This document shows positions 24,144 through 54,937 of a stretch of DNA of 64,000 bases, piece after piece. The DNA comes from an uncultured bacterium (GTDB lineage: Bacteria; Krumholzibacteriota; Krumholzibacteriia; Krumholzibacteriales; Krumholzibacteriaceae): assembly GCA_963747385.1 (NCBI GenBank), contig CAVVEY010000022.1, positions 11,739-75,738 on the forward strand. Direction: 5' to 3'. Position 1 is the stretch's first letter. Every line of letters begins with the position of its first letter. The notes beneath the pieces were generated by a model. That model saw only the letters and a program-made list of their open reading frames with translations, was not told the DNA's origin and made no database searches. Position numbers and translations under genes: made by a program.

Positions 24144-24236
24144 TACGCGGGTCCTGCCGCTGATTGCTACCCCGCGCGTGCTCGCTCGCACCGCGAGCTG
24201 CGCGCCACGCGGGGACCCCATCAGCGTCACCCGCTA
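24144..24236 (-). repeat. Dispersed rod-hairpin repeat (module A+B), copy 1
   Basis: Near-identical to the reverse complement of 54713-54804; its 5' part also occurs at 29389-29419. Folds into four nested stems. Confidence 0.9.
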
Positions 24237-26451
24237 GTCGGGCAGGCGCGGACACTCTCGCGACGAACTCATTGGAGGCTCTGCGACTGAGTTCGGAGCG
24301 AGAGTGTCCGCGCCATCCCCACCCGCTGCGCCTCGGTTTCTCCACGTCTCCCGCTGCGCGACGAAGAGCTCGAGGGCGAGCAGGGCCATCGCGGCGAGAA
24401 GAACCGGAATCGTGATTTCCCTGCCCGTGCGCGCCGCGCGGATCGCGGGGGCGAGCTCCCTGTCTTCCTCGACGACGAGCCTGGCCCCAAGCCCGAGGGA
24501 ATCGGCCGCGGCGCGGGGATCGAGGTACGCGAGATCCGACTCCTCGCGGCAGTCCGGGTTGACGGCGGTCTTTCCTTTCACTTCGGCGCCCGCGAATATC
24601 GTCACGATGCCGGGCGTCTCGACGGGAGGAACGAGAATGCCCGCGGGCACTTCCGCGGGCTTGAGCGTCGCGCCGCCGGGAAGCTCGACGGTGAATTCTC
24701 CGCCCCGCTCCCCGCTCCATACTATCGGCTCTCCGACGAGGCTCCCTTCGCGCGCGGGCAGCTCCCGGCCCGTCGCGAGAACGAGCTGCTGCACGAGCGG
24801 CAGGAAATACGGCGAGAGCACGAGCTCTCCCGCCTCCGGCCTCGGGTCTATGGCGGCGAACACGACCGTTCCCTCGCCGCGCCTCTCTTCCCATACGAAT
24901 GGGCCGCGCCTCTCGAACGAGAGCGTCGCGGCTCCGGGAGGCACTCCCCTCACGAGCGCGGCGCTTCTGAATCTCAGGCGCGCGAGCGCCTCGAGGTCCC
25001 TTTCGTCGAACGGCGCGAGAAAGCCCGGCGCCCCCGCCGGCTTCGAGAGCCGGAAAAAGCCCTGCGGCATTTCGGCGAAATCGAATTTGAGCGGATACCG
25101 GCTGAGCCTCTCGGCGGCCGCCTCGAGCTCCGGCACGAGAAACACGATCGCCGTGCCCCCGCGCGCGACGAAACGATCGACGATCTCGACGTCTCCCGGC
25201 GCCGGGCCCCGTCCGGGCCCGAGCACGACGACGTCCGCCGCGCTCAGGTCGGCGCTCGTGAAGGCGCGCCACCCGCGCTTCACGAGGGCGACGTCCCCCT
25301 CGACCCCTCCGGGAACGAGCGCCTGCTCGACGTAGAAGCCTCCCTCGTCGGCGAGAAGAAGGACGCGCGTCCTGTCCCGGACGTTCAGCGTGAAATATCT
25401 CGTGTCGTCGGCGGGGAGACGATCGGATCGTTTCTTCACGACGCCGTCGATCCATCCCGAGCGCTCGACGGGAAACACGACCGTCTCGGTGAAATAGTTG
25501 TCGGGGAGGATCTCGATCTCCTTCTCCATGACGCGTCGCCCCGCGATCGAGACCTCGAGCGGGAATTTCGCGGCGAGCTCGCGCGACCTGTTCCGCAGAA
25601 CGATCCCGAGCTCCGCCGTCTCCCCCTTGTGGAGCGCGACGCCCGGCACGACGACGCTCTCGACCGCCACGTTCGCCGCCGCGTTCGCCTGCACGGGAAG
25701 AAGAAACGCCCGGACGGGATGTGCGGCGCGGGACTTTTCGCGGGTCGCCGGCACGCCGATGGCGCTGCGGCCCGGCATATCGGCGACGTCACGATCCGGC
25801 GCGCCCGCCTCGCCCGCGACGCGCGTCCCCGCGCGAGCGAGCGCCGTCCTCTGGAAATCCGATATAATGTAGAGCTCGCGCACGTCGCGGCGGCTCCCGG
25901 CGAGCATGCGCTCCCCGGTCGCGGCGGCGCTGCGCAGATCGGTTCCCCCATACGACGGCCGCGCGCCGCGCAGCGCCTCGAGGACGGCCTCTTTCTCGAT
26001 CTCCCCGTCGTAAACGATCTCGCTCGCCGTATCGAAAAGAACGATCGACACCGCGTCCCCCCGCTCGAGATTGTCGAGGATCGCGGAGAGCCGCGCGACC
26101 GCCGCGGTCGAAGGCGACGCCCGCCTCCCCCTCCACTCCCATGCTGAAGCTCCGGTCGAGGAGAATGCACGCCGCGCGCGAACCTCCCGCCGGAAAGAGC
26201 GACGCGAGGGAGCCGCGCACCACGGGCCGCGCGAACGCGAGCGCGACGAGGGCGACGGCGAGGATCCTCATGAGCAGGAGGAGCAGCCGCCGCACGTTTA
26301 TCCGCATCATGCTGCGCCGGTCGGACCGGCTGAGGAAGCGGATCGTGCTGAAGGGAACCTCGGGGACGCGCCTCCGGCTGAAGATATGTATGAGAATGGG
26401 GACCGCCACCGCGGCCAGCGCGAAAAGGTAGAGCGGACTCAGAAAATTCAC
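24234..26451 (-). CDS. BatA N-terminal / vWA domain membrane protein (apparent +1 frameshift near 26103)
   Basis: MNFLSPLYL...PILIHIF BatA motif, LLDRSFSM MIDAS, ISDFQ and a C-terminal TM. Confidence 0.87.
24245..24314. repeat. Palindromic hairpin repeat (module H), copy 1
   Basis: Perfect 17-bp outer stem and 8-bp inner stem with a 16-nt loop; homologous to 29309-29380. Confidence 0.9.
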
Positions 26452-28497: not shown

Positions 28498-29283
28498 ATG
28501 CTCTTCGAAACGAAAAAGAGGCGCCGCACTCGCCTCATGAAAACGCCCCTCCCCCCGGCGCAGCTTGCGATCGTCGAGCGCAACGTGCCGTATTATCGCG
28601 CGCTCGCGCCCGAGGATCGGGAGGAGCTCCGGGGGCTCGTCCAGATCTTTCTCGCCGAGAAGAACTTCGAGGGCTGCGACGGCCTCGAGATCACGGACGA
28701 GATCCGGCTCACGATCGCCGCGCAGGCGTGCATCCTCCTGCTCCACAGGAAAACCGATATCTACCCGCTGCTGCAATCGGTCCTCGTCTACCCGCACACG
28801 TTCGTCGCCCCCCTGAAGGAACGCGGGCCGGGCGGCGTCGTGATCGAGGATTTCGAGGAGCGCGACGGGGAATCGTGGGATATCGGAGCTCTCATTCTCT
28901 CGTGGGACGACGTCATGGAAAGCGTCGCGGACCCCCGCGACGGCTACAACGTCGTGTTCCACGAGTTCGCCCACCAGCTCGACGACGAGGCGGGGATCGC
29001 CGACGGTGCGCCGCCGCTGCCCGAGAGATCGATGTACGACGATTGGGCGCGCGTACTCGGCGCCGAGTACGACGCGCTCGCGGAAGCCGTCCGGCGCCAC
29101 CGGCCGACGCTGCTCGACGAGTACGGCGCCGAGAGCCCCGCGGAGTTCTTCGCCGTCGCGACCGAGACTTTCTTCGAGCTGCCCCGCGATCTCAAGGCCG
29201 CACATCCGGCGCTCTACGAGCAGCTCTCCCGCTTCTACAGGCAGGATCCCGCCGCATCCGCGCCGCCCGCGCCGCAGCGCTGA
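28498..29283 (+). CDS. MtfA-like M90 zinc metallopeptidase
   Basis: IAAQACI, VLVYP, NVVFHEFAHQLD and YGAESPAEFFAVATETFFE motifs. Confidence 0.92.
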   Translation: MLFETKKRRRTRLMKTPLPPAQLAIVERNVPYYRALAPEDREELRGLVQIFLAEKNFEGCDGLEITDEIRLTIAAQACILLLHRKTDIYPLLQSVLVYPHTFVAPLKERGPGGVVIEDFEERDGESWDIGALILSWDDVMESVADPRDGYNVVFHEFAHQLDDEAGIADGAPPLPERSMYDDWARVLGAEYDALAEAVRRHRPTLLDEYGAESPAEFFAVATETFFELPRDLKAAHPALYEQLSRFYRQDPAASAPPAPQR

Positions 29284-29308
29284 CTCCCCACCAGCAGGTG
29301 GCGGCGAA

Positions 29309-29380
29309 GGCGCAGGACATTCCCGCGAACGAGCCCATTGGAGCCCTGCGACTGGGCTCGGAGCGGGAATGTCCTGCGCC
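29309..29380. repeat. Palindromic hairpin repeat (module H), copy 2
   Basis: Perfect 18-bp outer stem and 8-bp inner stem with a 15-nt loop; intergenic between convergent genes. Confidence 0.9.
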
Positions 29381-29388
29381 GGCACTGT

Positions 29389-29419
29389 TAGCGGGTGACG
29401 CTGATGGGGTCCCGCGTGG
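29389..29419 (+). repeat. Module A (5' half only), copy 2
   Basis: TAGCGGGTGACGCTGATGGGGTCCCGCGTGG matches 54713-54744 and the reverse complement of 24205-24236. Confidence 0.88.
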
Positions 29420-29422
29420 GCG

Positions 29423-31657
29423 TCAGTATCTCCCGATCTGCCATTCGTCGAAGATAACGTCGGCGATCGAATCGACCTGCGCGCGATTGAAGAACCAGAG
29501 CGGCAATCCGAAGTGCACGCTCGGAGCGCCGACGGCATCGGTGGCGTCGGCGACGACATCCTCGTATTTCGTCGTCCAGAAGGCCACGACGTCGCCGTTC
29601 ACGGCGGAGATCGCGCTGCGGGCCTTCATCCGGTACATCGGGACGAAGCAGGGCTGCCGGCTCGCGTTGATCGTTCTCATCCAGTACGTCGGATTGTACA
29701 GCTCCACGTAGGTGAATCCCTGCACTTTGGGATCGAAGAACATCCCGTCCTTGGTGACCTGGCCCCAAAGGGTGAGCTTGTTGGGCAGATCCAGGTGCCC
29801 CGTCGTGAGCGGTTCGCGGGTGTCCTTGACGGCGTACGCCATGGCGTCGTAATCGACGCGCCGCTCGGGCATCCGCGGATCGATCCGCGAAATCGGCCTG
29901 GCTCTGTCGATAACGGTCACGCAATAGGTCTTGTACGCGATGCTGTAGACGCCGCTCGTGTCGCCGTCGCACCCCGTGCTCGTTCCCGCGATCTCGCAGC
30001 GAAGGTTCCGGGGAAACGACTGGTTGGTGATGGAGAACACGGCGCCGAGCCCTCCCCGCGAATCGGACTTTCCTTCGGACCAGATGTGCCCGCCCGCCGC
30101 CACGTAATACGCGAGGTAATTGAATTGCCCGGTATTCGATCAAGCCGAGCTGCGATTCCGGCGTGAACCGGACCATGTCGTCCCACGTCATGACGTCGTC
30201 GCTCGCCGTATAGCTCCAGATGATGTTCTTGTACTTCCACAGGACTTCGATATCGATCTTTCGGAAGCTCATGTCCGCCGTTTCGTACACGTCGGAGCCC
30301 GGATCGAAATCCCTCGCCCTGCCGCAGATGCTTCAGCCAGAACTCGTCGTGCTCCGTTTCCGTCGGAAATGCGTAGGTCGTCTGGGAGAAATTGGTCGAG
30401 TAGAAATCGTCGACCCAGAGCAGATTCTTCGTCATCTTCGACGGGAAAAATCGTCATCTCGAACTGGGCGAGCGTCGTCGTGCCCATGTCGTCGATCGTT
30501 TCGATGAAGAGCGTGTGCACGCCGGTCTCGAACGATATCCGCGGCGCCGCCTTGACGAGCGGCGACGGGAGCACGGCCCATTCGCTCTGATCGTTGAGGT
30601 CCGCGATGTCCCATCCGTACCGGTACGAGCTCACCGCGGCGCCGTAGCTCGAGGCATCGGCCGACCAGCTGAAATCGAGCGGGAAGTTTCCGGGGACGCG
30701 AAACGTCTCTATTCTGTTCTTGCCGCCGATGAACGTGTACGTGCCGAGATTCCGCTCCCTGACACTGAGCAGCGGGCCCGGAGGGTTGAACACCCTGAAT
30801 ATCCTCGCATTCTGGCCCGGATCGAACACGGACGTCACGGCGCCCGCCTCGTCCTTGGCCTGCACGACGAGCACGTATCCGAACCCTTTCACGATGAGCT
30901 CGTCGTCGCCGATGACGGTCGAGGTTCCGGAATCCCCCGGGGCGTCATACGGGATCCACGGGCACCAGCGGCTCTCGTATTCTTCCGGATTCCTGTTCAG
31001 GTTGTCCAGGAAGCTCAGCGTATGGGTGGCGACGAAATAGCGGATCGATTCCGGTTCCTGGATGTTCCACGGATCGTCGACCGGGTCTTCTCCCCTCCAC
31101 GTGAACCTGACGAGCGCGGGGAGCTGCTGCTCCCTTCCGGGAAAGGCGTTTCGCGGCGTTTCGATGACGGCGTAGGGAGCCAGCGTGCTCGCGGTGAACG
31201 ACCGGTAAGCAGCCCTCGATCTCGCTCCCTTGTCGTCCACCGCTCTGACGAAGAACGTGTGGACCTTCCGGCAATACGTGGAGTACCTTCCGGGTCCGAC
31301 AGTTATGTCTTCGCCGTTCTCGAAGGCCGAGAACGCGAACGTGCTGTCCGTGCAACGGATCTTCGTCCATGCGGCGAGCCCGGTCGTATCGGCGGGATCG
31401 AAGCCTCCCGGGCTTCCGTCGCACATGGCGTATTCGTAGCTCTCCACGGTGCCGTCGGCGTCGTTTCCCATCCAGCTGAACTTGATCTGATAGCTGGTCG
31501 TGTCCCCTTCGGGCGGGGCTCCCGTAAGTCGCACCGTCGGGGGTTTGTTCGGGTGCGGATCGCCGATGAAGACGCTGTCGTCGCATCCGAAGAGCGCTGC
31601 GAGAACCAGCGCACAGGCGAGAACCGCCCCCGGCAGATATTCGCGCATACGCTTCAT
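29423..31657 (-). CDS. Large lipoprotein of duplicated module 1 (three apparent +1 frameshifts near 30437, 30330 and 30135)
   Basis: Lipobox LFG-C. The joined frames are colinear with the intact paralogue 34296..36533 (HTFFVRAVDD, VQAKDEAGAVTS, LLWVDDFYST, APSVHFGLPLWFFNRAQVDSIADV). Confidence 0.85.
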
Positions 31658-34163
31658 CGTATCACCACGAATTTCCCGACGACCCTCGGAAATTTCCCGT
31701 CATCGGGATCGACGCTGAAGAGATATACGCCGCTCGTGACGGTCTGGCCGTTCCGCGAGACGAGGTTCCACGCGAGCGTGCCGCTGCCGGCGCTCCCGTC
31801 GTGTCGAAGATTCTGCACGAGATCCCCCGCGACGGTGAAGATACGCACGGTGCTCCAGCACTTCGGGAGATTCCGGAATTCGGCCTTCTCTCCCGAAGGA
31901 TCGGCGTTGTTCGGCTCGAACGTCCACGGCGCCATCCTTTCGCGCGTGACCGGATTCGGCACGACGTAGACGTCCGTTTCGTCGAAAAATTCCGCCTCCT
32001 GGGCCTCCGATCGCGGCGCCGCGTAGACGAAATTCCCATAGGGAGAATCCACTCTCCCCATTCCTTTCGGCTTGCCGAATACGTACAACGGCTCATACGC
32101 GATGACGGAGTAGAAATAGGGCATCCCGTTCTTCACGTCGTGATCGATGTATCGATAGTACTGCCGCCCGCCGTCGAAGCCGAGATTCCACCGCGCGAGC
32201 GCTTCCAGCGTGTCGCACTCCGCGCCCGTGACTCCGGGAGGGCAGGGAACCTCGGCGAGCGGATCGTAGCGGAGGTTTTCCTCGAAGGCCTTGAGGAGCG
32301 CCGCCCGTCCCTCCACCTGCTGGAGGGGCTCGTACTGAAAACCTCCGTCCTGCCACGGTCTCCTGAGATCGACGTTGGGCTCGATGTCGTTCACGAGATC
32401 GCGGGTGTCGAGCAGGTGCCACAGGTCGTCGCTCGGCCCGCTCGCCACCGTCGTCCCGAGCGGCCGGTGCCATTCGTCGGCCCTCCAAACCTGATAGCCC
32501 TCGAATTCGATCTTCAACGTAACCGGATCGGGGGTAATCTCGCTCAGGTTATCCCAGATGAGGCCGACGACGCCGTCGCCGACGACGGCGCGCATGACGG
32601 GCGCGGGCGGCGTTACGCTCGTGATCCAGTTTATCCGGGCCTCGCAGCCGTTGATGCCCGTTTGAAAATCCTTCAGGAGCATCGACCCTTTGAAGCAGCC
32701 CGGATAATTCGCCATCGTCCTTTCTTCGAAGCAGTCCGCGTTAATCCAGATCGTGTCGCGGACGGCGACCTTGACCTTCTCGGTGCTCGCGCAGGGGTCC
32801 GGATATATCCCCTGTGTCGCGGAATTCTCGTCGCCGATGAAAATCGTCTCGCGGCCGTTGATTCCCGTATTGCGGTTCTTGTCCTTGTCGACCCACGTCC
32901 CTGCGTAAACGAGCTTCATGAATGCGGCGTTGTCGCAGGAACTCATCGAGCCCTTCGCCGGCCGTGTATGCGATGTCCAGCTGTATCGATTGCCCCGGCG
33001 CGAGGAAGAACGGCCCCACGCTCATGAGGGCCTTGTAGTCGTTCGGATCTTCCGTGTCGGGCTGAAACGAGCTTTTCGAGAGAAGCTCGTAGCGCTGAAA
33101 GTCGTTTATCGGCTCGCCGCCGCGATCGTATGGAAGCAGCCCGGCGAAAATGCGGATCGCCGAGGGAGTGTCCTGCGCCTCCTCCGTCGGTCCCGTCCTG
33201 CATAACCATATGGGTGCCCAGAAGCACGATGCCGAAATATCCTTTCGTTCTCCCGCCGTCCCCGTCGTCGTCGTGGACATAGAGCGTGGAGATCCTCTCG
33301 GGTCTCGAAATGCCTCCGCCGAGGGGGGCGCACCAGATGCCCGACCACGATCCGATCTGATCGTCCTTGTAGTAGCTCGGAGCGTTCCTCGGCCCCGCGT
33401 CGAGATCGGCGTATATGCCCACATAGACGTTCTGAAGAAATCTGACTCCCTCGTTGCTGATATCGTAGTGCACGCCCACGGAGTTGTAGCTGCTTTCCTC
33501 GCTCCACTGGTACGTCTCCTGGCGAACCTTGAGATTGAGCGGCGCGTGCTCGGGCCATACCTCCTGCGCGGTGCCCTGATCGTCCGTGAACCAGCAGGAA
33601 TACATGATCTTCCCGAGGGCGGCGAAATCTTCGTCGATGAGCCCGTCATGATCGTCGTCGCGCCCGTTGAGCCAGTCCTCGTTGATTCGCCCGTCGCCGT
33701 CGTCGTCGGGATTTGACGGATAGGTGCGCCCTCCCTTCATCCCTTCGGTCGTCTTGTAGATGATATCGACCGCGTCGTCGCTGGGGTAAAACTCCATTTC
33801 GGGATAACCGGTCGAGACCGAGGGCACGCCGTCGATCTCGGCGCCGACCCAGAGCCCGGCGGCGTAGAGATACTCGACCCCGCTTCCCGCGGGCCACTGG
33901 GCCGAGGGGGAATCGGCCATCGGATAGCTGCTCTTGGGAAGCGAGCCGAGAAAGCCGAAGTTCGTCACGTTCATCTGGAGGTTCCCGCTCGAAGTTACTG
34001 CCCGTCCGTCCAGAACGAGCGTCCGGCTGATGGTTTCGATCTTGTCTTTGAGATTATCCCCGCGGTCCTGGGCGTATGCCGGTCCGCGCATGACGGTGCC
34101 AAGAGCCAGGAGAATCCAACAGCCCGTCGCCCGCACAACATAGCAACGCCGGAGCACGAACAC
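31654..34163 (-). CDS. Secreted protein with T9SS/FlgD-like C-terminal domain, module 1 (apparent +1 frameshift near 32936)
   Basis: Signal peptide, GNLQMNVTNFGFLGS, DxDGDG repeats and C-terminal YVVPNP...RIFTVAGDLV...WNLVSRNG...SGVYLF...GKFVVIR. Confidence 0.82.
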
Positions 34164-34224
34164 ACCTCCGCCGCGTCCCCCCGGAAATTCGAGGTAACGC
34201 GCAAAAACCGTGCAGCTTTAATAT

Positions 34225-34233
34225 ATTATACCA
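34225..34233 (-). promoter_or_regulatory. Extended -10 promoter element upstream of module 1
   Basis: TGgTATAAT on the minus strand within an AT-rich patch. Confidence 0.5.
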
Positions 34234-34295
34234 TATGGAGCGAGTAAAGTTCCTTGACGGGGCGAGCGGAGGAAGCGGGCCGCGCCCGTTTCGCG

Positions 34296-36533
34296 TCACG
34301 GGCCTGCTCGTATTCCCCACTCCCCGAACACGACGTCGGCTATCGAATCGACCTGGGCCCTGTTGAAGAACCAGAGCGGCAAGCCGAAATGCACGCTCGG
34401 GGCGGCGACGGCGCCCGGAACCGGCGCGACGACGTCTGCGTACCTCGTCGTCCAGAACGCTACCACCGTCTTGTCGACCGCCGAGACCGAGTTGCGCGCC
34501 CGCATGCGGTACAGGGGGTGGAAGCAGGACTGCGGGCTCGCCCCGATGACGTCCATCCAGTATTCGGGGTTGTATATCTCCACGTAGCTGAATCCCTTGA
34601 CCTGGGGATCGAAGAAGTTGCCGGGCTTCGTCACCGTCGACCAGAGCTGGAGCTTTCGCGGCAGACCGGGCAGCGCCCCCGTAACCGCGTCAGCCGCGTC
34701 GATGTATCCGTAGCCCATCGCGTCCCACTCGATCCGCCTTTCGGGCATGGACCACCACCAATCGCCTCGGGGCAGCGCCGCGGCCTTGTCGATCACCGAA
34801 ACGCAGTAATCCCGGTACGCCATGCACTCGACCCCGCTCGTATCCCCCGCGCAGCCGACCTGCGGCCCGTTGATCTCGCATTTCAGGTACAGGGGAAATC
34901 GCTGCGCGTTCTCGTACAGAACCGCGGCGAGACCGCCTTGCCTGTCCGACCTCCCGCAGCTCCAGAGATGCCCCCCCGAGGCGACGTAATACGAAAGGAA
35001 ATTGAACCTGGAGTGGCCCAGCGTGGATATGCGGCTCTCGGGCGTGAACAGCACCATGTTGTCCCACGCGTTGATTCTGTTGTCGGACGAATAGGTCCAG
35101 ATGATGCTCCGGTATTTCCACAGAATCTCGGCGCGCGGCGGAAGAAAGCTCAGGTCTTTCGTGTCGAACACGTCGCGGTCGGGATTGAAGTCCCGCGCGC
35201 GCGCGCAGATCCTGAGCCAGAACTGATCGTGCTCCTTCTCCGTCGGAAAGGAGTAATCGGTCTGAACGAAATCGGTCGAATAGAAATCGTCGACCCAGAG
35301 CAGGTTCCTGCTCATATCGATGGGGAATACGCTGATCTCGATCTGCGCGAGCGTCGAATAGCCGTTGTTGTCGATCGCCTCGATGAACAGCGTATGGACG
35401 CCCGAGCTGAAGCTGCGGGGCGGCGCCGACGTCGCATAGGGGCTCGGGAGCACCTCCCAGTCGCTCGGATTGGAGAGATCCGCGACGTCCCACCCGTACC
35501 GGTAGCCGCTGATGACCCCCCCGTAGCTGCTCGCGTCCGCGCTCCATGTGAAGCGAAAAGCGAACTCGGCGGGAAGAGAGAACGCCTGCGGCCGGATATT
35601 GGTGCCGATGAACCGGTGCAGGCCGAGATACGTTTCTTTGACCGTGAGCTCCGGCCCCACGACCTTGAGGATCGCGTAGACGCGGACGTTCGATCTCATG
35701 TCGAATATCGACGTGACCGCCCCGGCCTCGTCCTTCGCCTGGACCGCGAAAACGTACCGGCTCTTCATGTCGAGCATCTCGTCGTCCCCCAGGACGACGG
35801 TCGTGCCCGAATCCCCCGGAGCGTCCGTCGCGATCCATCGGGACCAGAGCGATTCGAAGCGATCGAGGCGCTCGTTCAGCTCCTGCACGGTGCCGTCGGT
35901 CCAGACCGTCCAGAGGTAACGGATCGAGTCGACCTTCGCGACGTGCCACGGATCGTCCCTCGGATCGGTCCCCACCCAGTGGAACCGGACGATCGGCGGC
36001 AGCGTCTGGGTCTGTCCCGGAAAGGCGTTGGGGGGAAAATCGATCGTGACGCCCGGGGCCAGAGTCCAGGTCGTGAACGAGCGGTATGCGGGCTCCGACC
36101 GGCTTCCCCGGTCGTCGACGGCCCTCACGAAAAAGGTATGCGTTCTCTTGAATCGCGAGAACGTGCCCCCGCCTATCGTCACGGTCGTATCGTATTGATC
36201 CGCGGCGAGCACGAAAACGCTGTCGGTGCGGGGCGTCTTCGTCCACCGCTCGAGCCCCGTCGTATCCTGCCGGTTGAACCCGAGAGGGTCGCCGTCGCAG
36301 ACGACGAACTCGTAGCGCTCGACCTTTCCGTCGCGGTCTTGCCCCAGCCAGCTGAGCTCGACCTTGTACCCGACGACGTCCTGCTCGACCGGACCGTTCA
36401 CGAGCCGGATCGTCGGCGGCGCGTTCGTTTCCGTCGAGTCGATGAACGCGTTCTCCGAGCAGCCCGCGCAGAGGAGCGCCGCGGCGGCGAGGATAATCCG
36501 GATTCTGCGGCCCTTCATGTTCATGCCGTTCAC
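34296..36533 (-). CDS. Large lipoprotein of duplicated module 2 (intact)
   Basis: Lipobox CAG-C; Ig/Fn3-like beta-rich segments then an alpha/beta C-terminal domain. GTG start overlaps the upstream TGA. Confidence 0.85.
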   Translation of the reverse strand: MNGMNMKGRRIRIILAAAALLCAGCSENAFIDSTETNAPPTIRLVNGPVEQDVVGYKVELSWLGQDRDGKVERYEFVVCDGDPLGFNRQDTTGLERWTKTPRTDSVFVLAADQYDTTVTIGGGTFSRFKRTHTFFVRAVDDRGSRSEPAYRSFTTWTLAPGVTIDFPPNAFPGQTQTLPPIVRFHWVGTDPRDDPWHVAKVDSIRYLWTVWTDGTVQELNERLDRFESLWSRWIATDAPGDSGTTVVLGDDEMLDMKSRYVFAVQAKDEAGAVTSIFDMRSNVRVYAILKVVGPELTVKETYLGLHRFIGTNIRPQAFSLPAEFAFRFTWSADASSYGGVISGYRYGWDVADLSNPSDWEVLPSPYATSAPPRSFSSGVHTLFIEAIDNNGYSTLAQIEISVFPIDMSRNLLWVDDFYSTDFVQTDYSFPTEKEHDQFWLRICARARDFNPDRDVFDTKDLSFLPPRAEILWKYRSIIWTYSSDNRINAWDNMVLFTPESRISTLGHSRFNFLSYYVASGGHLWSCGRSDRQGGLAAVLYENAQRFPLYLKCEINGPQVGCAGDTSGVECMAYRDYCVSVIDKAAALPRGDWWWSMPERRIEWDAMGYGYIDAADAVTGALPGLPRKLQLWSTVTKPGNFFDPQVKGFSYVEIYNPEYWMDVIGASPQSCFHPLYRMRARNSVSAVDKTVVAFWTTRYADVVAPVPGAVAAPSVHFGLPLWFFNRAQVDSIADVVFGEWGIRAGP

Positions 36534-39056
36534 CGTATGACGACGAATTTTCCCACGACCCGCCGGAATCTCCCGTCCTCCGGCTCGACGCCGAAAAGAT
36601 ACACGCCGCTCGCGAGGCCCTGCCCGTTCCTCGATACCATGTTCCACGGGAGCGTCCCGTTGCCGCCGCCGCCGTCATGCGCGAGCGCCGCGACGAGATC
36701 CCCCGAGAGCGTGTAGATTCTCACCGTGCTGCGGCACCTCGGGAGATTGCGGAACTCCAGCTTTTCGCCGCTCGGATCGCCGTTGTTCGGCTCGAGCGTC
36801 CACGGCGCCGTTCGCGCCTTCGTGACGGGATTCGGCACGACGTATATCTCTTCCGGATCGAAATCCCCGTACGTCTGCGCCGGCGAATGCGGCTCGACGT
36901 AGACGAAATTCGAAATGGGCGTGTCGCGCACGCCGATGGCGTCCGGATTCCCGTGCAGCAGGAGATTGTCGTATGCAACCACGGCGTAGAAATAGGGCAT
37001 CCCGTTCTTCGGCGCGGTGTCGATATACGTGTAGTACTGCCTTCCCCCTTCGAGCCCGAGATTCCAGCGGGCGAGCGCCTCGAGCGTGTCGCATTCCGCG
37101 CTCGCGAGCCCCGACGGGCACGGGGGAGACTCGAACGGATTGGACTTCAGGCGCTGCTCGAACTCGTCGATGAGACCTTCGCGCTCGCCGAGGCGCGCGA
37201 GAGGCTCGTAAGCGAACCCCCCCTCCGAGAACGATCTCTTGAAATCGTTGTCGGGCGGAAGGCCGTTGACGAGATCCCGGTTCTCGACAAGATGCCACAG
37301 ATCGGCGCTCGGACCGCTCGCCTCGGTCGTCCCGAGCGGACGGCGCCAGTCGTCGGCCCTCCAGATCTGGTAGCCCTCGAAGTCGTACCGCAGCGTGACG
37401 AGGTCGCGCGTTATCTCGCTCAGGTTGTCCCAGAAGAGCGTGACCGTGCCGTCGCCGGCCGTCGCCCGCATCGCGGGAGGAGGAGGCGCCGTGCTCGTCA
37501 CCCAATGAACCTGCGTTTCCTTGCCGTCGACGCCGGTTTGAAAGTCCCTGAAGCTCAAGTTCCCCCGGTAGCACGCGGGGTAATTGTAGAATTCGAGCTC
37601 CTCCGCGCAATCGGCGTTCGTCCAGAGCGTGTCTCCCCTTCTGAGGCGGATGCTTTCTTCGTAGTCGTCGCAGGCGTCGGGATCGATCATGTCCACGGGG
37701 CCCGCCACCGGCGTCTCCCTGCCGCGGATCCCCGTCTGCGGCCGCTTGTCGACGTCGTGCCATATGCCGCGATAGACGTACGCCGCCATCGCGGCGTTGT
37801 CGAGAAGACCCGCGAGCCCCTCGCCGCACGCATAGGCGGCATGAATCTCGATCGCGGCGCCCGGCATGAGCTGCGAGAACGGGCCGACGCTCATGAGCGC
37901 CTTGTAATCGTTCGGCTCGACCGTATTCACATCCATCGCCGCGTTCGAGAGCGAGGAATAGCGCTCGAAGTCGTTCACCGGCTCTCCCCCGCGCTCGAAA
38001 GGCAGCAGCCCCGTGAAAATCCTCACGGCGTTGAGCTGCCCCGCGACCGGAACGGCATCCCAGATCGTCTGCGTCCAGCTCCCGAGAAGCACGAGCCCGA
38101 AATAGCCCGGCGTCCTGCCGCCGTCACCGTCGGCGTCGTAAACGTATACGACGCTGAATCGCACCGGCACGGAGGCGTCGCCCACCCTCGCGCACCAGAT
38201 CCCTTCCCACGTGCCTACCATGTCGTCCCTGAAATAATTGCCGAGATTTCTCGGCCCCGCGTCGAGGTCGGCGTATATGCCGGCGTAGATATTCTCCAGG
38301 ATGTCGTCGCCGGTATTCGTGACGGTGTAATGAACCCCGATGAAATTGTAGAGCTGCTTTTCGCTCCACTGGAAGGTCTCCTGCCGCACCTCGATCCCGA
38401 GCGGCGAATGCTCCGGCCAGACGCGCCTCGCGACCTCCTCGACGTCGGAGTAGCGGCACGAGTACATGAGATTGCCGATCGCCGCGTAGTCCTCGTCGAT
38501 GAGGCCGTCGCCGTCGTCGTCGCGCCCGTTCGAGCGGGTCCTCGTTCACGCGCCGGTCGCCGTCGTCGTCGGCGCGGCCCGGGTAATTCCCGCCCCCCTT
38601 CGTCCCTTCCGAGCTGCGATAGATGACGTCGATCGGATCGTCCGACGGATAGAGCTCGGTCTCGGGATATCCCGTCGAGACGGCCGGGACACCCGTCCGT
38701 TCCGCGCCGATCCAGATCCCCGCCGCGTAGAGATATTCGATTCCGCTTCCCGCGGGCCATTGCGCGGACGGGGAATCGGACATCGGCAGCCGGCTCGCCG
38801 GCATCGAGCCGAGGAATCCGAAGTTGGTCACGTTCATCTGGAGATTGCCCGCGTACTGGACGCGGCTTCCGTCGATGACGAGCGACTTCTTGGCGAGATC
38901 GAGCTTCCCGGCGAGGGCGCTCGCGCGGTCTTCGGCGCGGGCGGACGAAAAGGCTCCGGGCCCGAACGGGATCGAGCCGCCCGCGAACTGAAGCATTCCG
39001 AGCGCGAGCACGAGCGAGAGTGCGATCGTTTTGCCTTGCGGGAGAGAAAGCCGCAT
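36530..39056 (-). CDS. Secreted protein with T9SS/FlgD-like C-terminal domain, module 2 (apparent +1 frameshift near 38531)
   Basis: Paralogue of 31654..34163 with the same N-terminal motifs and the same GKFVVIR end. Confidence 0.82.
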
Positions 39057-39218
39057 ACCCCGCCATGCCCCCCATGGCATCGTGTGCAGATTGTGCCGAG
39101 ATCGTTTCGTGCCGGGTCGTATTGTGCTTGAAATATCGCGGTTGCCGCGGCGCGCCGCAATTCCATAATGGGGCGGAGGAGGACGCGGCTCACCCCCGCC
39201 CTTGCGCGGCGACGAGCG

Positions 39219-54575: not shown

Positions 54576-54591
54576 TGTTTCACGTGAAACA
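54576..54591. promoter_or_regulatory. parS site 1
   Basis: Perfect palindrome TGTTTCACGTGAAACA. Confidence 0.95.
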
Positions 54592-54712
54592 TTCGGGCCG
54601 GTCGCTCCCGGCGCGCCCATACTGCCCCGACCAGCGGGTGACGAGGATGGCGAGGACATTCCCGCCTGCACCATTAGCGGGCGGCGGCGCCAGGGTCTCC
54701 TCCGGGCACTAG

Positions 54713-54804
54713 TAGCGGGTGACGCTGATGGGGTCCCCGCGTGGCGCGCAGCTCGCGGTGCGAGCGAGCACGGGCGGGGTGCAATCGGTGACAGGACCCG
54801 CGTA
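54713..54804 (+). repeat. Dispersed rod-hairpin repeat (module A+B), copy 3
   Basis: Matches the reverse complement of 24144-24236. Confidence 0.9.
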
Positions 54805-54902
54805 TCGTGCGAGCACGCGCGGGGCGTAATCAGCGGCAGGACCCGCGTATCGTGCGAGCACGCGCGGGGTGTAATCAGCGGCAGGACCCGCGTATCGTGC
54901 GA
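54764..54902 (+). repeat. 45-bp tandem repeat x3 (3' half of the rod hairpin)
   Basis: Units start at 54764, 54809 and 54854; consensus GCGAGCACGCGCGGGGTGTAATCAGCGGCAGGACCCGCGTATCGT. Confidence 0.93.
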
Positions 54903-54921: not shown

Positions 54922-54937
54922 TGTTTCACGTGAAACA
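54922..54937. promoter_or_regulatory. parS site 2
   Basis: Perfect palindrome TGTTTCACGTGAAACA. Confidence 0.95.

Follow-up and report, generated by a model that had tools for sequence, protein, structure and literature searches.

A palindromic element, here termed H, occurs twice in a 64,000-nucleotide (nt) stretch of DNA from an uncultured bacterium of the Krumholzibacteriaceae (hereafter the window; assembly GCA_963747385.1, contig CAVVEY010000022.1, positions 11,739 to 75,738), and our analysis suggested that H is probably a selfish DNA palindrome. We favour, at a probability of roughly 0.65, the reading that H is a non-coding palindromic repeat of DNA that moves, or did so until recently, and whose stems have been compensated by copying at the DNA level. 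It would then be of the same kind as the repetitive extragenic palindromic (REP) sequences, the REP doublets forming hairpins (REPINs) and the bacterial interspersed mosaic elements (BIMEs), without the REP-associated tyrosine transposase (RAYT). The two copies belong to a family whose members are polymorphic for insertion, are inverted in situ, nest within one another and form arrays, and show Watson-Crick-only pairing. In a metagenome-assembled genome (MAG) of the Candidate Phyla Radiation (CPR), one member has an arm of local origin.

The initial annotation of the window had placed two hairpins at the positions given in Table 1, and both were found there. Copy 1 reads GGCGCGGACACTCTCGC-GA-CGAACTCA-[TTGGAGGCTCTGCGAC]-TGAGTTCG-GA-GCGAGAGTGTCCGCGCC (terminal loop in square brackets) and folds into a 17-bp outer stem, a GA/GA internal loop made of tandem G·A mismatches, an 8-bp inner stem and the terminal loop. 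Copy 2 reads GGCGCAGGACATTCCCGC-GAA-CGAGCCCA-[TTGGAGCCCTGCGAC]-TGGGCTCG-GA-GCGGGAATGTCCTGCGCC and folds in the same order, with 18 bp in the outer stem, GAA/GA as the internal loop and again 8 bp in the inner stem, followed by the terminal loop. The conserved core corresponds to CATTGGAGGCTCTGCGACTG (24270-24289) in copy 1 and to CATTGGAGCCCTGCGACTG (29336-29354) in copy 2. Four substitutions and one indel distinguish the stems of the two copies, and every one of them is mirrored on the opposite arm, just as the annotation had claimed. Its further claim of a conserved, sequence-specific loop holds at the level of the family, where such a loop is kept on about 140 distinct copies, but not strictly for the two window copies, whose loops differ by one indel and one substitution. 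The GA internal loop, likewise described as conserved, is open in 131 of 141 complete hairpins (a number obtained under a looser criterion than that of the pairing analysis below), but it is closed to Watson-Crick pairs in the other 10, through changes on either arm; within the window, its 5′ side is GA in copy 1 and GAA in copy 2, which leaves one unmirrored base. DNA folding of both strands of both copies gave energies of -31 to -34 kcal/mol (z from -7.8 to -9.9), and 0 of 200 shuffled sequences folded as well.

To assess the size of the family, a profile built from the two copies was run with nhmmer against the 3.05-Mb, 25-contig genome to which the window belongs. The search returned 43 matches, which correspond to 35 non-overlapping sites, and copies of H range from 69 to 77 nt in length. 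All 35 sites lie outside genes or at gene ends, as judged from gene calls made with a crude filter on the G+C content of third codon positions (GC3). As two related strains are mixed in the MAG, the 35 sites represent only about 28 loci. Self-comparison of the genome revealed long syntenic contig pairs (C1/C15, C4/C17, C2/C7, C5/C20, C18/C20, C8/C21 and C17/C19) that are 87-96% identical, that is, two related populations. This mixture inflates the copy counts, yet it also supplies natural allelic comparisons. The loop motif itself gave 30 matches in this genome, and the reversed-pattern control gave 0.

Covariation was analysed on 33 genomic copies, a set that leaves out two truncated tandem partners among the 35, and the signal that the initial annotation had proposed to look for proved to be strong. 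The results showed that 93.5% of the cells were paired, compared with 84.9% in shuffles, and that both sides had changed at 17 of the 26 stem pairs. Double changes were counted in 68 cells against 13.7 expected, together with 6 one-sided changes; 0 of 500 shuffles reached these values, and the signal was destroyed by sliding the partner column. Copies from the window's genome, other MAGs and metagenome contigs were also pooled into a set of 182 distinct family-type copies, 136 of which are complete hairpins. Among the 3128 pairs of these hairpins, 2956 (94.5%) were Watson-Crick pairs, 50 were G·T and 122 were other mismatches, so that G·T made up only 29% of the mismatches and wobble pairs were not favoured. 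Perfect hairpins numbered 47 and hairpins with one mismatch 46, and at least two types of Watson-Crick pair, including swaps between CG and GC, were seen at all 23 positions. The two arms of one copy were complementary at a mean of 21.1 of 28 positions, compared with 17.3 for arms taken from different copies. Across the pooled copies, uncompensated mismatches did not appear at the background rate, and the loop remained conserved.

Comparison of orthologous sites revealed insertion polymorphism at both window positions. The copy 1 site lies between mfd and an unknown gene. These two genes are about 1 base apart in G068 and G069, where the site is empty, and in G067 they are separated by a neighbouring repeat, module M (described below), without H. 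In G000 (the window's own genome), G070, G077 and G075, the site contains M plus H, with compensated stems that are specific to each species, and in G065 it contains H in the opposite orientation. In addition, a DNA contig of the public run X1 skips exactly 24243-24346. The copy 2 site lies between two convergent genes, Peptidase_M90 (plus strand, end at 29283) and a minus-strand open reading frame (ORF); it is occupied by H in G000 and G077 and by a different repeat in G073 and G070, and it is empty in G067 and others. No direct duplication was seen when filled and empty sites were compared.

Alleles within the mixed MAG provided evidence for changes in place. Between the strain alleles C1_6549 and C15_13997, the whole of H is inverted, loop and internal loop together, and the right flank is unchanged. 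A module of two hairpins, which separates a radical-SAM gene from its partner, is also inverted between contigs C4 and C17. Two substitutions, both of them mirrored, distinguish the allelic hairpins C4_3481 and C17_7495. At C15_31940, the core and 3′ arm of an older hairpin have been replaced by a new complete hairpin, and at one conserved locus two to four units follow one another at a spacing of 58 nt, their number differing by species. These arrays consist of truncated units and close in one complete hairpin, which is the last unit. Back-to-back pairs of H were also observed in two spacers about 3.5 kb apart along one gene row (G000 C4:3399-7183 and C17:3780-7565), and the same arrangement occurs in other species (L012 and L066). 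The first of these spacers extends from the end of a radical-SAM-type gene to a next gene starting with RYRVVFEKRG, which we take to be TIGR03936-like.

The distribution of H is narrow. The loop motif was present in 10 of 208 Krumholzibacteriota genomes, all belonging to the genus of the window, with 0 matches for the reversed-pattern controls; it occurred in 9 of the 15 other species of the genus and in 0 of 192 genomes elsewhere in the phylum. Among 185,579 species genomes, the exact 20-mer was found only in such MAGs, in one MAG labelled 'Candidatus Berkelbacteria' and in two lone matches without a hairpin. In metagenomes, 61 of 62 loci were of the GC-rich H type. Exact matches in Aquimarina (L141), a Lachnospiraceae MAG (L191) and the metagenome locus L307 were discarded, as no hairpin surrounded them. 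With a looser loop pattern, most of the 116 genome loci were single chance matches, and none of the 21 loci on IMG/VR viral contigs formed a hairpin (stems of at most 3 bp), so these were regarded as chance matches as well. With copy 2 as the query in distant mode, neither the plasmids of PLSDB nor the phages of INPHARED gave a match. The whole window gave 0 Rfam matches at the gathering thresholds, and the best sub-threshold matches were generic microRNA-precursor hairpins at 26 bits, compared with thresholds of 84-97.

The Berkelbacteria MAG (G001), a 1.0-Mb AT-rich genome from an unrelated, ultra-small bacterium of the CPR, harbors 14 cores, 7 of them exact, with 0 matches for the reversed-pattern control, and the core is absent from all 60 relatives of G001 that were searched. 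Twelve of the 14 cores sit in perfect hairpins of 13-22 bp, whose stems are AT-rich and different in every copy. The hairpins are located 5-45 nt past the stop codons of housekeeping genes (such as lysS/asnS, alaS, priA and dnaA) and upstream of ordinary terminators. At the locus L123, the gene-proximal arm contains the native codons W-P-L-N-Q-stop, and the orthologues in nine relatives end in WPx(x)-stop and have no hairpin. Because the proximal arm overlaps the native gene end, at least the outer part of the distal arm of L123 is an inverted copy of native local sequence. Moreover, in two pairs of G001 copies the outer flanks and the loop are common to both members, and the stems are unrelated. 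Two of the G001 copies, L128 and L129 on contig C35, flank dnaA, one in the rnpA-dnaA spacer and the other 21 nt past the dnaA stop. In G001, an empty site with only one arm would take a form such as ...TGGCCTCTAAATCAATAAAGGT running straight into the terminator.

These results led us to propose a mechanism in which the only sequence-constrained part of H would be the loop core of 19-20 nt, CATTGGAG-(G)CYY-TGCGACTG. This core would define the family and is presumably recognised by whatever spreads H, and the arms would need only to be complementary. One arm may be copied from the other by replication template switching or by gene conversion, which would homogenise the arms and could also extend them into flanking DNA and invert the spacer. 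Whole hairpins may in addition be replaced ectopically by other family members, a process that would explain the wholesale swaps of stems. Under this mechanism, the compensation would not have arisen by stepwise compensatory selection on an RNA. We read the compensated divergence as a DNA-level product because mirrored multi-base changes at allelic loci that are almost identical, inversion of the whole spacer, stem extension into local DNA and the lack of a preference for wobble pairs are the published signatures of template switching, and the occasional closure of the internal loop on either arm is what arm copying would produce. The initial annotation had offered two causes for the compensation. 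Palindrome self-correction at the DNA level fits the data better, whereas selection on RNA structure fits poorly with the ratio of G·T pairs to other mismatches (50 vs 122), the mixed orientation of the copies, the inversion in situ and the native gene end within a CPR arm.

Within the window, H is accompanied by other repeats (Table 1). The right end of module M, followed by a 7-nt linker (GTCGGGC), abuts H copy 1. On the far side of the second hairpin, a P unit is joined to H copy 2 via the linker GGCACTGT (29381-29388), and a degenerate P-like stretch (29294-29308) abuts the other side of copy 2. P units start with (G)TAGCGGG. More generally, a 17-nt unit, (G)TAGCGGGTGRCGSYGAT, which also forms the end of module M, often abuts H, and a recurring linker, TGCACCGT, joins this unit and H, with H in both orientations relative to that frame. 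Module M, of about 100 nt, represents a separate family that is far commoner than H, with hundreds of matches spread over all 16 genomes of the genus. It is also found at 54706-54902 and resembles a GTAG-REP doublet, though no RAYT was found. Two TGTTTCACGTGAAACA palindromes (54576-54591 and 54922-54937) bracket three 45-nt tandem repeats (54754-54902) of module M; we take TGTTTCACGTGAAACA to be the canonical parS consensus. Elsewhere in the window, a gene block of about 4.87 kb is present as a tandem duplicate (29441-34300 and 34317-39200) with 70-86% identity.

Table 1. Positions of the two H hairpins and of the adjoining repeat units in the window.
Feature	Coordinates	Strand	Description
H copy 1	24245..24314	+	5′ arm 24245-24271; 16-nt loop 24272-24287; 3′ arm 24288-24314
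H copy 2	29309..29380	+	5′ arm 29309-29337; 15-nt loop 29338-29352; 3′ arm 29353-29380
Module M	24144..24243		two P units of the (G)TAGCGGGTG type, inverted about a small hairpin at the centre
P unit	29389..29416	+	TAGCGGGTGACGCTGATGGGGTCCCGCG

With regard to genes, the ORF at 24234..26051 (minus strand), upstream of mfd, reads through all of copy 1 and gains about 36 residues (...GGDGADTLAPNSVAEPPMSSSRECPRLPD*), and the same gene is terminated in G070 and G077 by a TAG immediately ahead of H. The read-through represents either a real C-terminal extension or a sequencing error. The orientation of H relative to neighbouring genes was read manually. The results showed about 10 copies antisense to the upstream gene and 6-7 copies in sense, with the remainder located between convergent genes.

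Several observations weigh against a DNA repeat compensated by arm copying alone. The internal loop is open in the great majority of copies, though unrestrained copying should erase it, and thus some selection must also act. Such selection could be on a strand-specific structure, or against long perfect palindromes. The persistence of the internal loop argues for some constraint on one strand, and a protein-recognised single-stranded DNA (ssDNA) form is possible. A weak strand bias was also detected, as H is opposite to the locally dominant gene strand at 17 of 22 independent loci (p = 0.017) and opposite to the sign of the GC skew at 16 of 22 (p = 0.052), and of the 12 hairpins in G001, 9 run antisense to the gene upstream and 3 run in sense. 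The bias could reflect a mechanism involving ssDNA or an effect of an RNA. Contigs from RNA libraries cover part of H plus its flank and overlap the neighbouring gene; these run data are assembled contigs with shares of at most 0.23, which cannot show strand, ends or expression level and are no proof of transcription. Moreover, the MAG and metagenome copies that were pooled are not phylogenetically independent and may share populations. As to a gene that could move H, the RAYT/Y1 transposase family (PF01797) had no match in the window's own genome, an 84% complete MAG. Reverse transcriptase (RVT_1), sought with the idea of snap-back synthesis, and the IS630-type transposase DDE_3, sought since module M ends in TA, were each found in 0 of 5 genomes; for all three families tried, absence from incomplete MAGs is no proof. 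PF01797 matched in 1 of 5 other H-bearing genomes, within an AT-rich stretch that has no P, M or core motifs nearby, and self-comparison of the window's genome yielded no repeats of the size of an insertion sequence, only strain duplicates. Finally, the identical 20-nt core in two phyla is explained by nothing tested.

Some of these points would be accommodated if H were the cis-acting site of a dedicated transposase or recombinase of ssDNA hairpins, in the way that RAYT acts on REP, TnpA on the ends of IS608 and IntI on attC, an explanation that we regard as possible but doubtful. Here, the loop and the G·A internal loop would mark the active strand, and compensation would result from selection at the level of the element, only paired copies propagating. 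The conservation of the loop core across two phyla, the retention of a strand-asymmetric internal loop in 131 of the 141 copies and the weak orientation bias relative to GC skew and dominant gene strand are all consistent with such an enzyme. The flanking (G)TAGCGGG-type units also resemble the GTAG-tagged REPs treated in PMC3733652, and PMC3116915 describes compensatory changes in REPIN hairpins. However, no Y1/HUH transposase was found by PF01797 in the window's genome, and the match in 1 of the 5 other H-bearing genomes is not flanked by these repeats. The CPR stems are all different, and one is partly native coding sequence, which a cut-and-paste hairpin element does not predict; furthermore, mirrored changes and inversions at allelic loci of about 93-96% identity are too fast for independent double hits. 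A further proposal, which we consider rather unlikely, is that the 19-20-nt core is the only transferable unit, a sequence-specific 'hairpin seed' placed just behind genes by an undescribed enzyme; the seed would then build its own stem, and continually rebuild it, from adjacent host DNA, and the identical core would be a trace of recent DNA exchange between the two phyla, for instance between an epibiont and its host. Inspection of the core had also suggested a Shine-Dalgarno sequence plus start codon (although the GGAGCCC variant no longer has GGAGG), a -35/-10 promoter (which looks plausible in the AT-rich stems of the CPR MAG but nowhere else), an anticodon loop like that of tRNA-Trp, a site for integration host factor (IHF), a dif/Xer-like site and a DNA uptake sequence, all of which came from inspection only, were unsupported and were rejected.

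It seems considerably less likely still that H is a structured RNA element, such as a stabiliser of 3′ untranslated regions, a processing site or a protein-binding hairpin, in which RNA folding would maintain the stem and a protein would bind the loop. The location of copies just downstream of genes, the very stable fold, the strong covariation and the RNA-library contigs that overlap H and a neighbouring gene would agree with an RNA, and REPs are understood to act on mRNA, a subject taken up in PMC3733652. On the other hand, the 50 G·T (G·U in RNA) pairs, set against 122 mismatches of other types, show no enrichment, both orientations relative to the gene upstream are seen, and H inverts in situ between strains. 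Its restriction to part of one genus plus one CPR species is unfit for a host RNA-protein system, no T-run follows the hairpin, Rfam gave no match, and in the window's own genome an ORF reads straight through copy 1. As for a chance palindrome or an assembly artefact, a point in its favour is that the MAG mixes two populations. This possibility is negligible, as it is refuted by independent assemblies: the element recurs, always as a hairpin, in no fewer than nine further MAGs from the genus, in one CPR MAG and in 61 of the 62 metagenome loci, with the reversed-pattern controls at 0.

Perfect compensation in a stem is commonly regarded as proving a functional RNA, and the H family would provide a clear counter-example, with compensation at allelic and orthologous sites traceable to copying, inversion and replacement at the DNA level. 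H also turns the usual REP logic round, in that the loop is fixed, the arms are free and the known REP transposase was not found. If a specific enzyme does recognise the core, it would represent a new kind of hairpin-directed mobile-DNA machinery and would also serve as a marker of DNA exchange involving CPR bacteria. In addition, such repeats distort gene ends, as with the ORF running through the hairpin here, and can mislead covariation-based searches for RNA genes.

Several known systems resemble H in part. Miniature inverted-repeat transposable elements (MITEs), such as Correia/NEMIS and the enterobacterial repetitive intergenic consensus (ERIC), are likewise non-autonomous, dispersed hairpin repeats, about 70-150 nt long, and are polymorphic for insertion among strains. 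Their terminal inverted repeats are conserved and bound by a transposase, and a target-site duplication is present, whereas the arms of H vary, no target-site duplication is recognisable, and a transposase partner is lacking (DDE_3 in 0 of 5 genomes). The attC sites of integrons share with H an imperfect palindrome of variable sequence and kept structure, unpaired bases that mark one strand, and an arrangement in arrays, and they act as folded single strands. However, the conserved bases of attC are at the base of the stem, whereas those of H are in the loop, and the copies of H carry no GTTRRRY/RYYYAAC (the R′′/R′ core sites) at the stem base. H also delimits no cassettes and is not next to an integrase (no search for intI was made); it flanks housekeeping genes, for example mfd and Peptidase_M90 in the window and dnaA, lysS and alaS in the CPR MAG.

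Template switching in inverted repeats, according to PMC8794818 and PMC8604942, gives rise to perfect stems, restores pairing, makes the two arms alike and inverts the spacer. Quasipalindrome mutation of this type thus matches H in compensated changes made in one step, perfect stems, arm extension and spacer inversion, all four of which occur in H. It is nevertheless a general mutational process rather than an element, and it leaves the conservation of the core, the spread of the core and the survival of the G·A loop unexplained. The closest known kind is that of REP, BIME and REPIN sequences. Like them, H is a short extragenic palindromic repeat, found mostly after genes and between convergent genes, which is dispersed and clustered, undergoes changes that preserve the hairpin, inserts into or beside its own kind and mixes with other modules and linkers. 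REPINs form hairpins as ssDNA or mRNA; PMC3116915 (Bertels & Rainey 2011) describes compensatory changes across the hairpin, and PMC3733652 (Di Nocera et al. 2013) reports that some REP families lie inside longer palindromes whose empty targets are not found. A REP is a 20-40-nt imperfect palindrome with an unpaired head, whereas H has no GTAG or CGTC head, and unlike the REPs and REPINs mobilised by a RAYT, H has no RAYT detected in its 84%-complete genome. H is present in tens of copies per genome, compared with hundreds for REPINs. Conservation in a REPIN falls on the two REP arms and leaves the spacer free, whereas H conserves its loop and leaves the arms free. Unlike that of a REPIN, moreover, the core of H is shared with a bacterium of another phylum, in which every copy has arms of its own and those at one site consist in part of local sequence.

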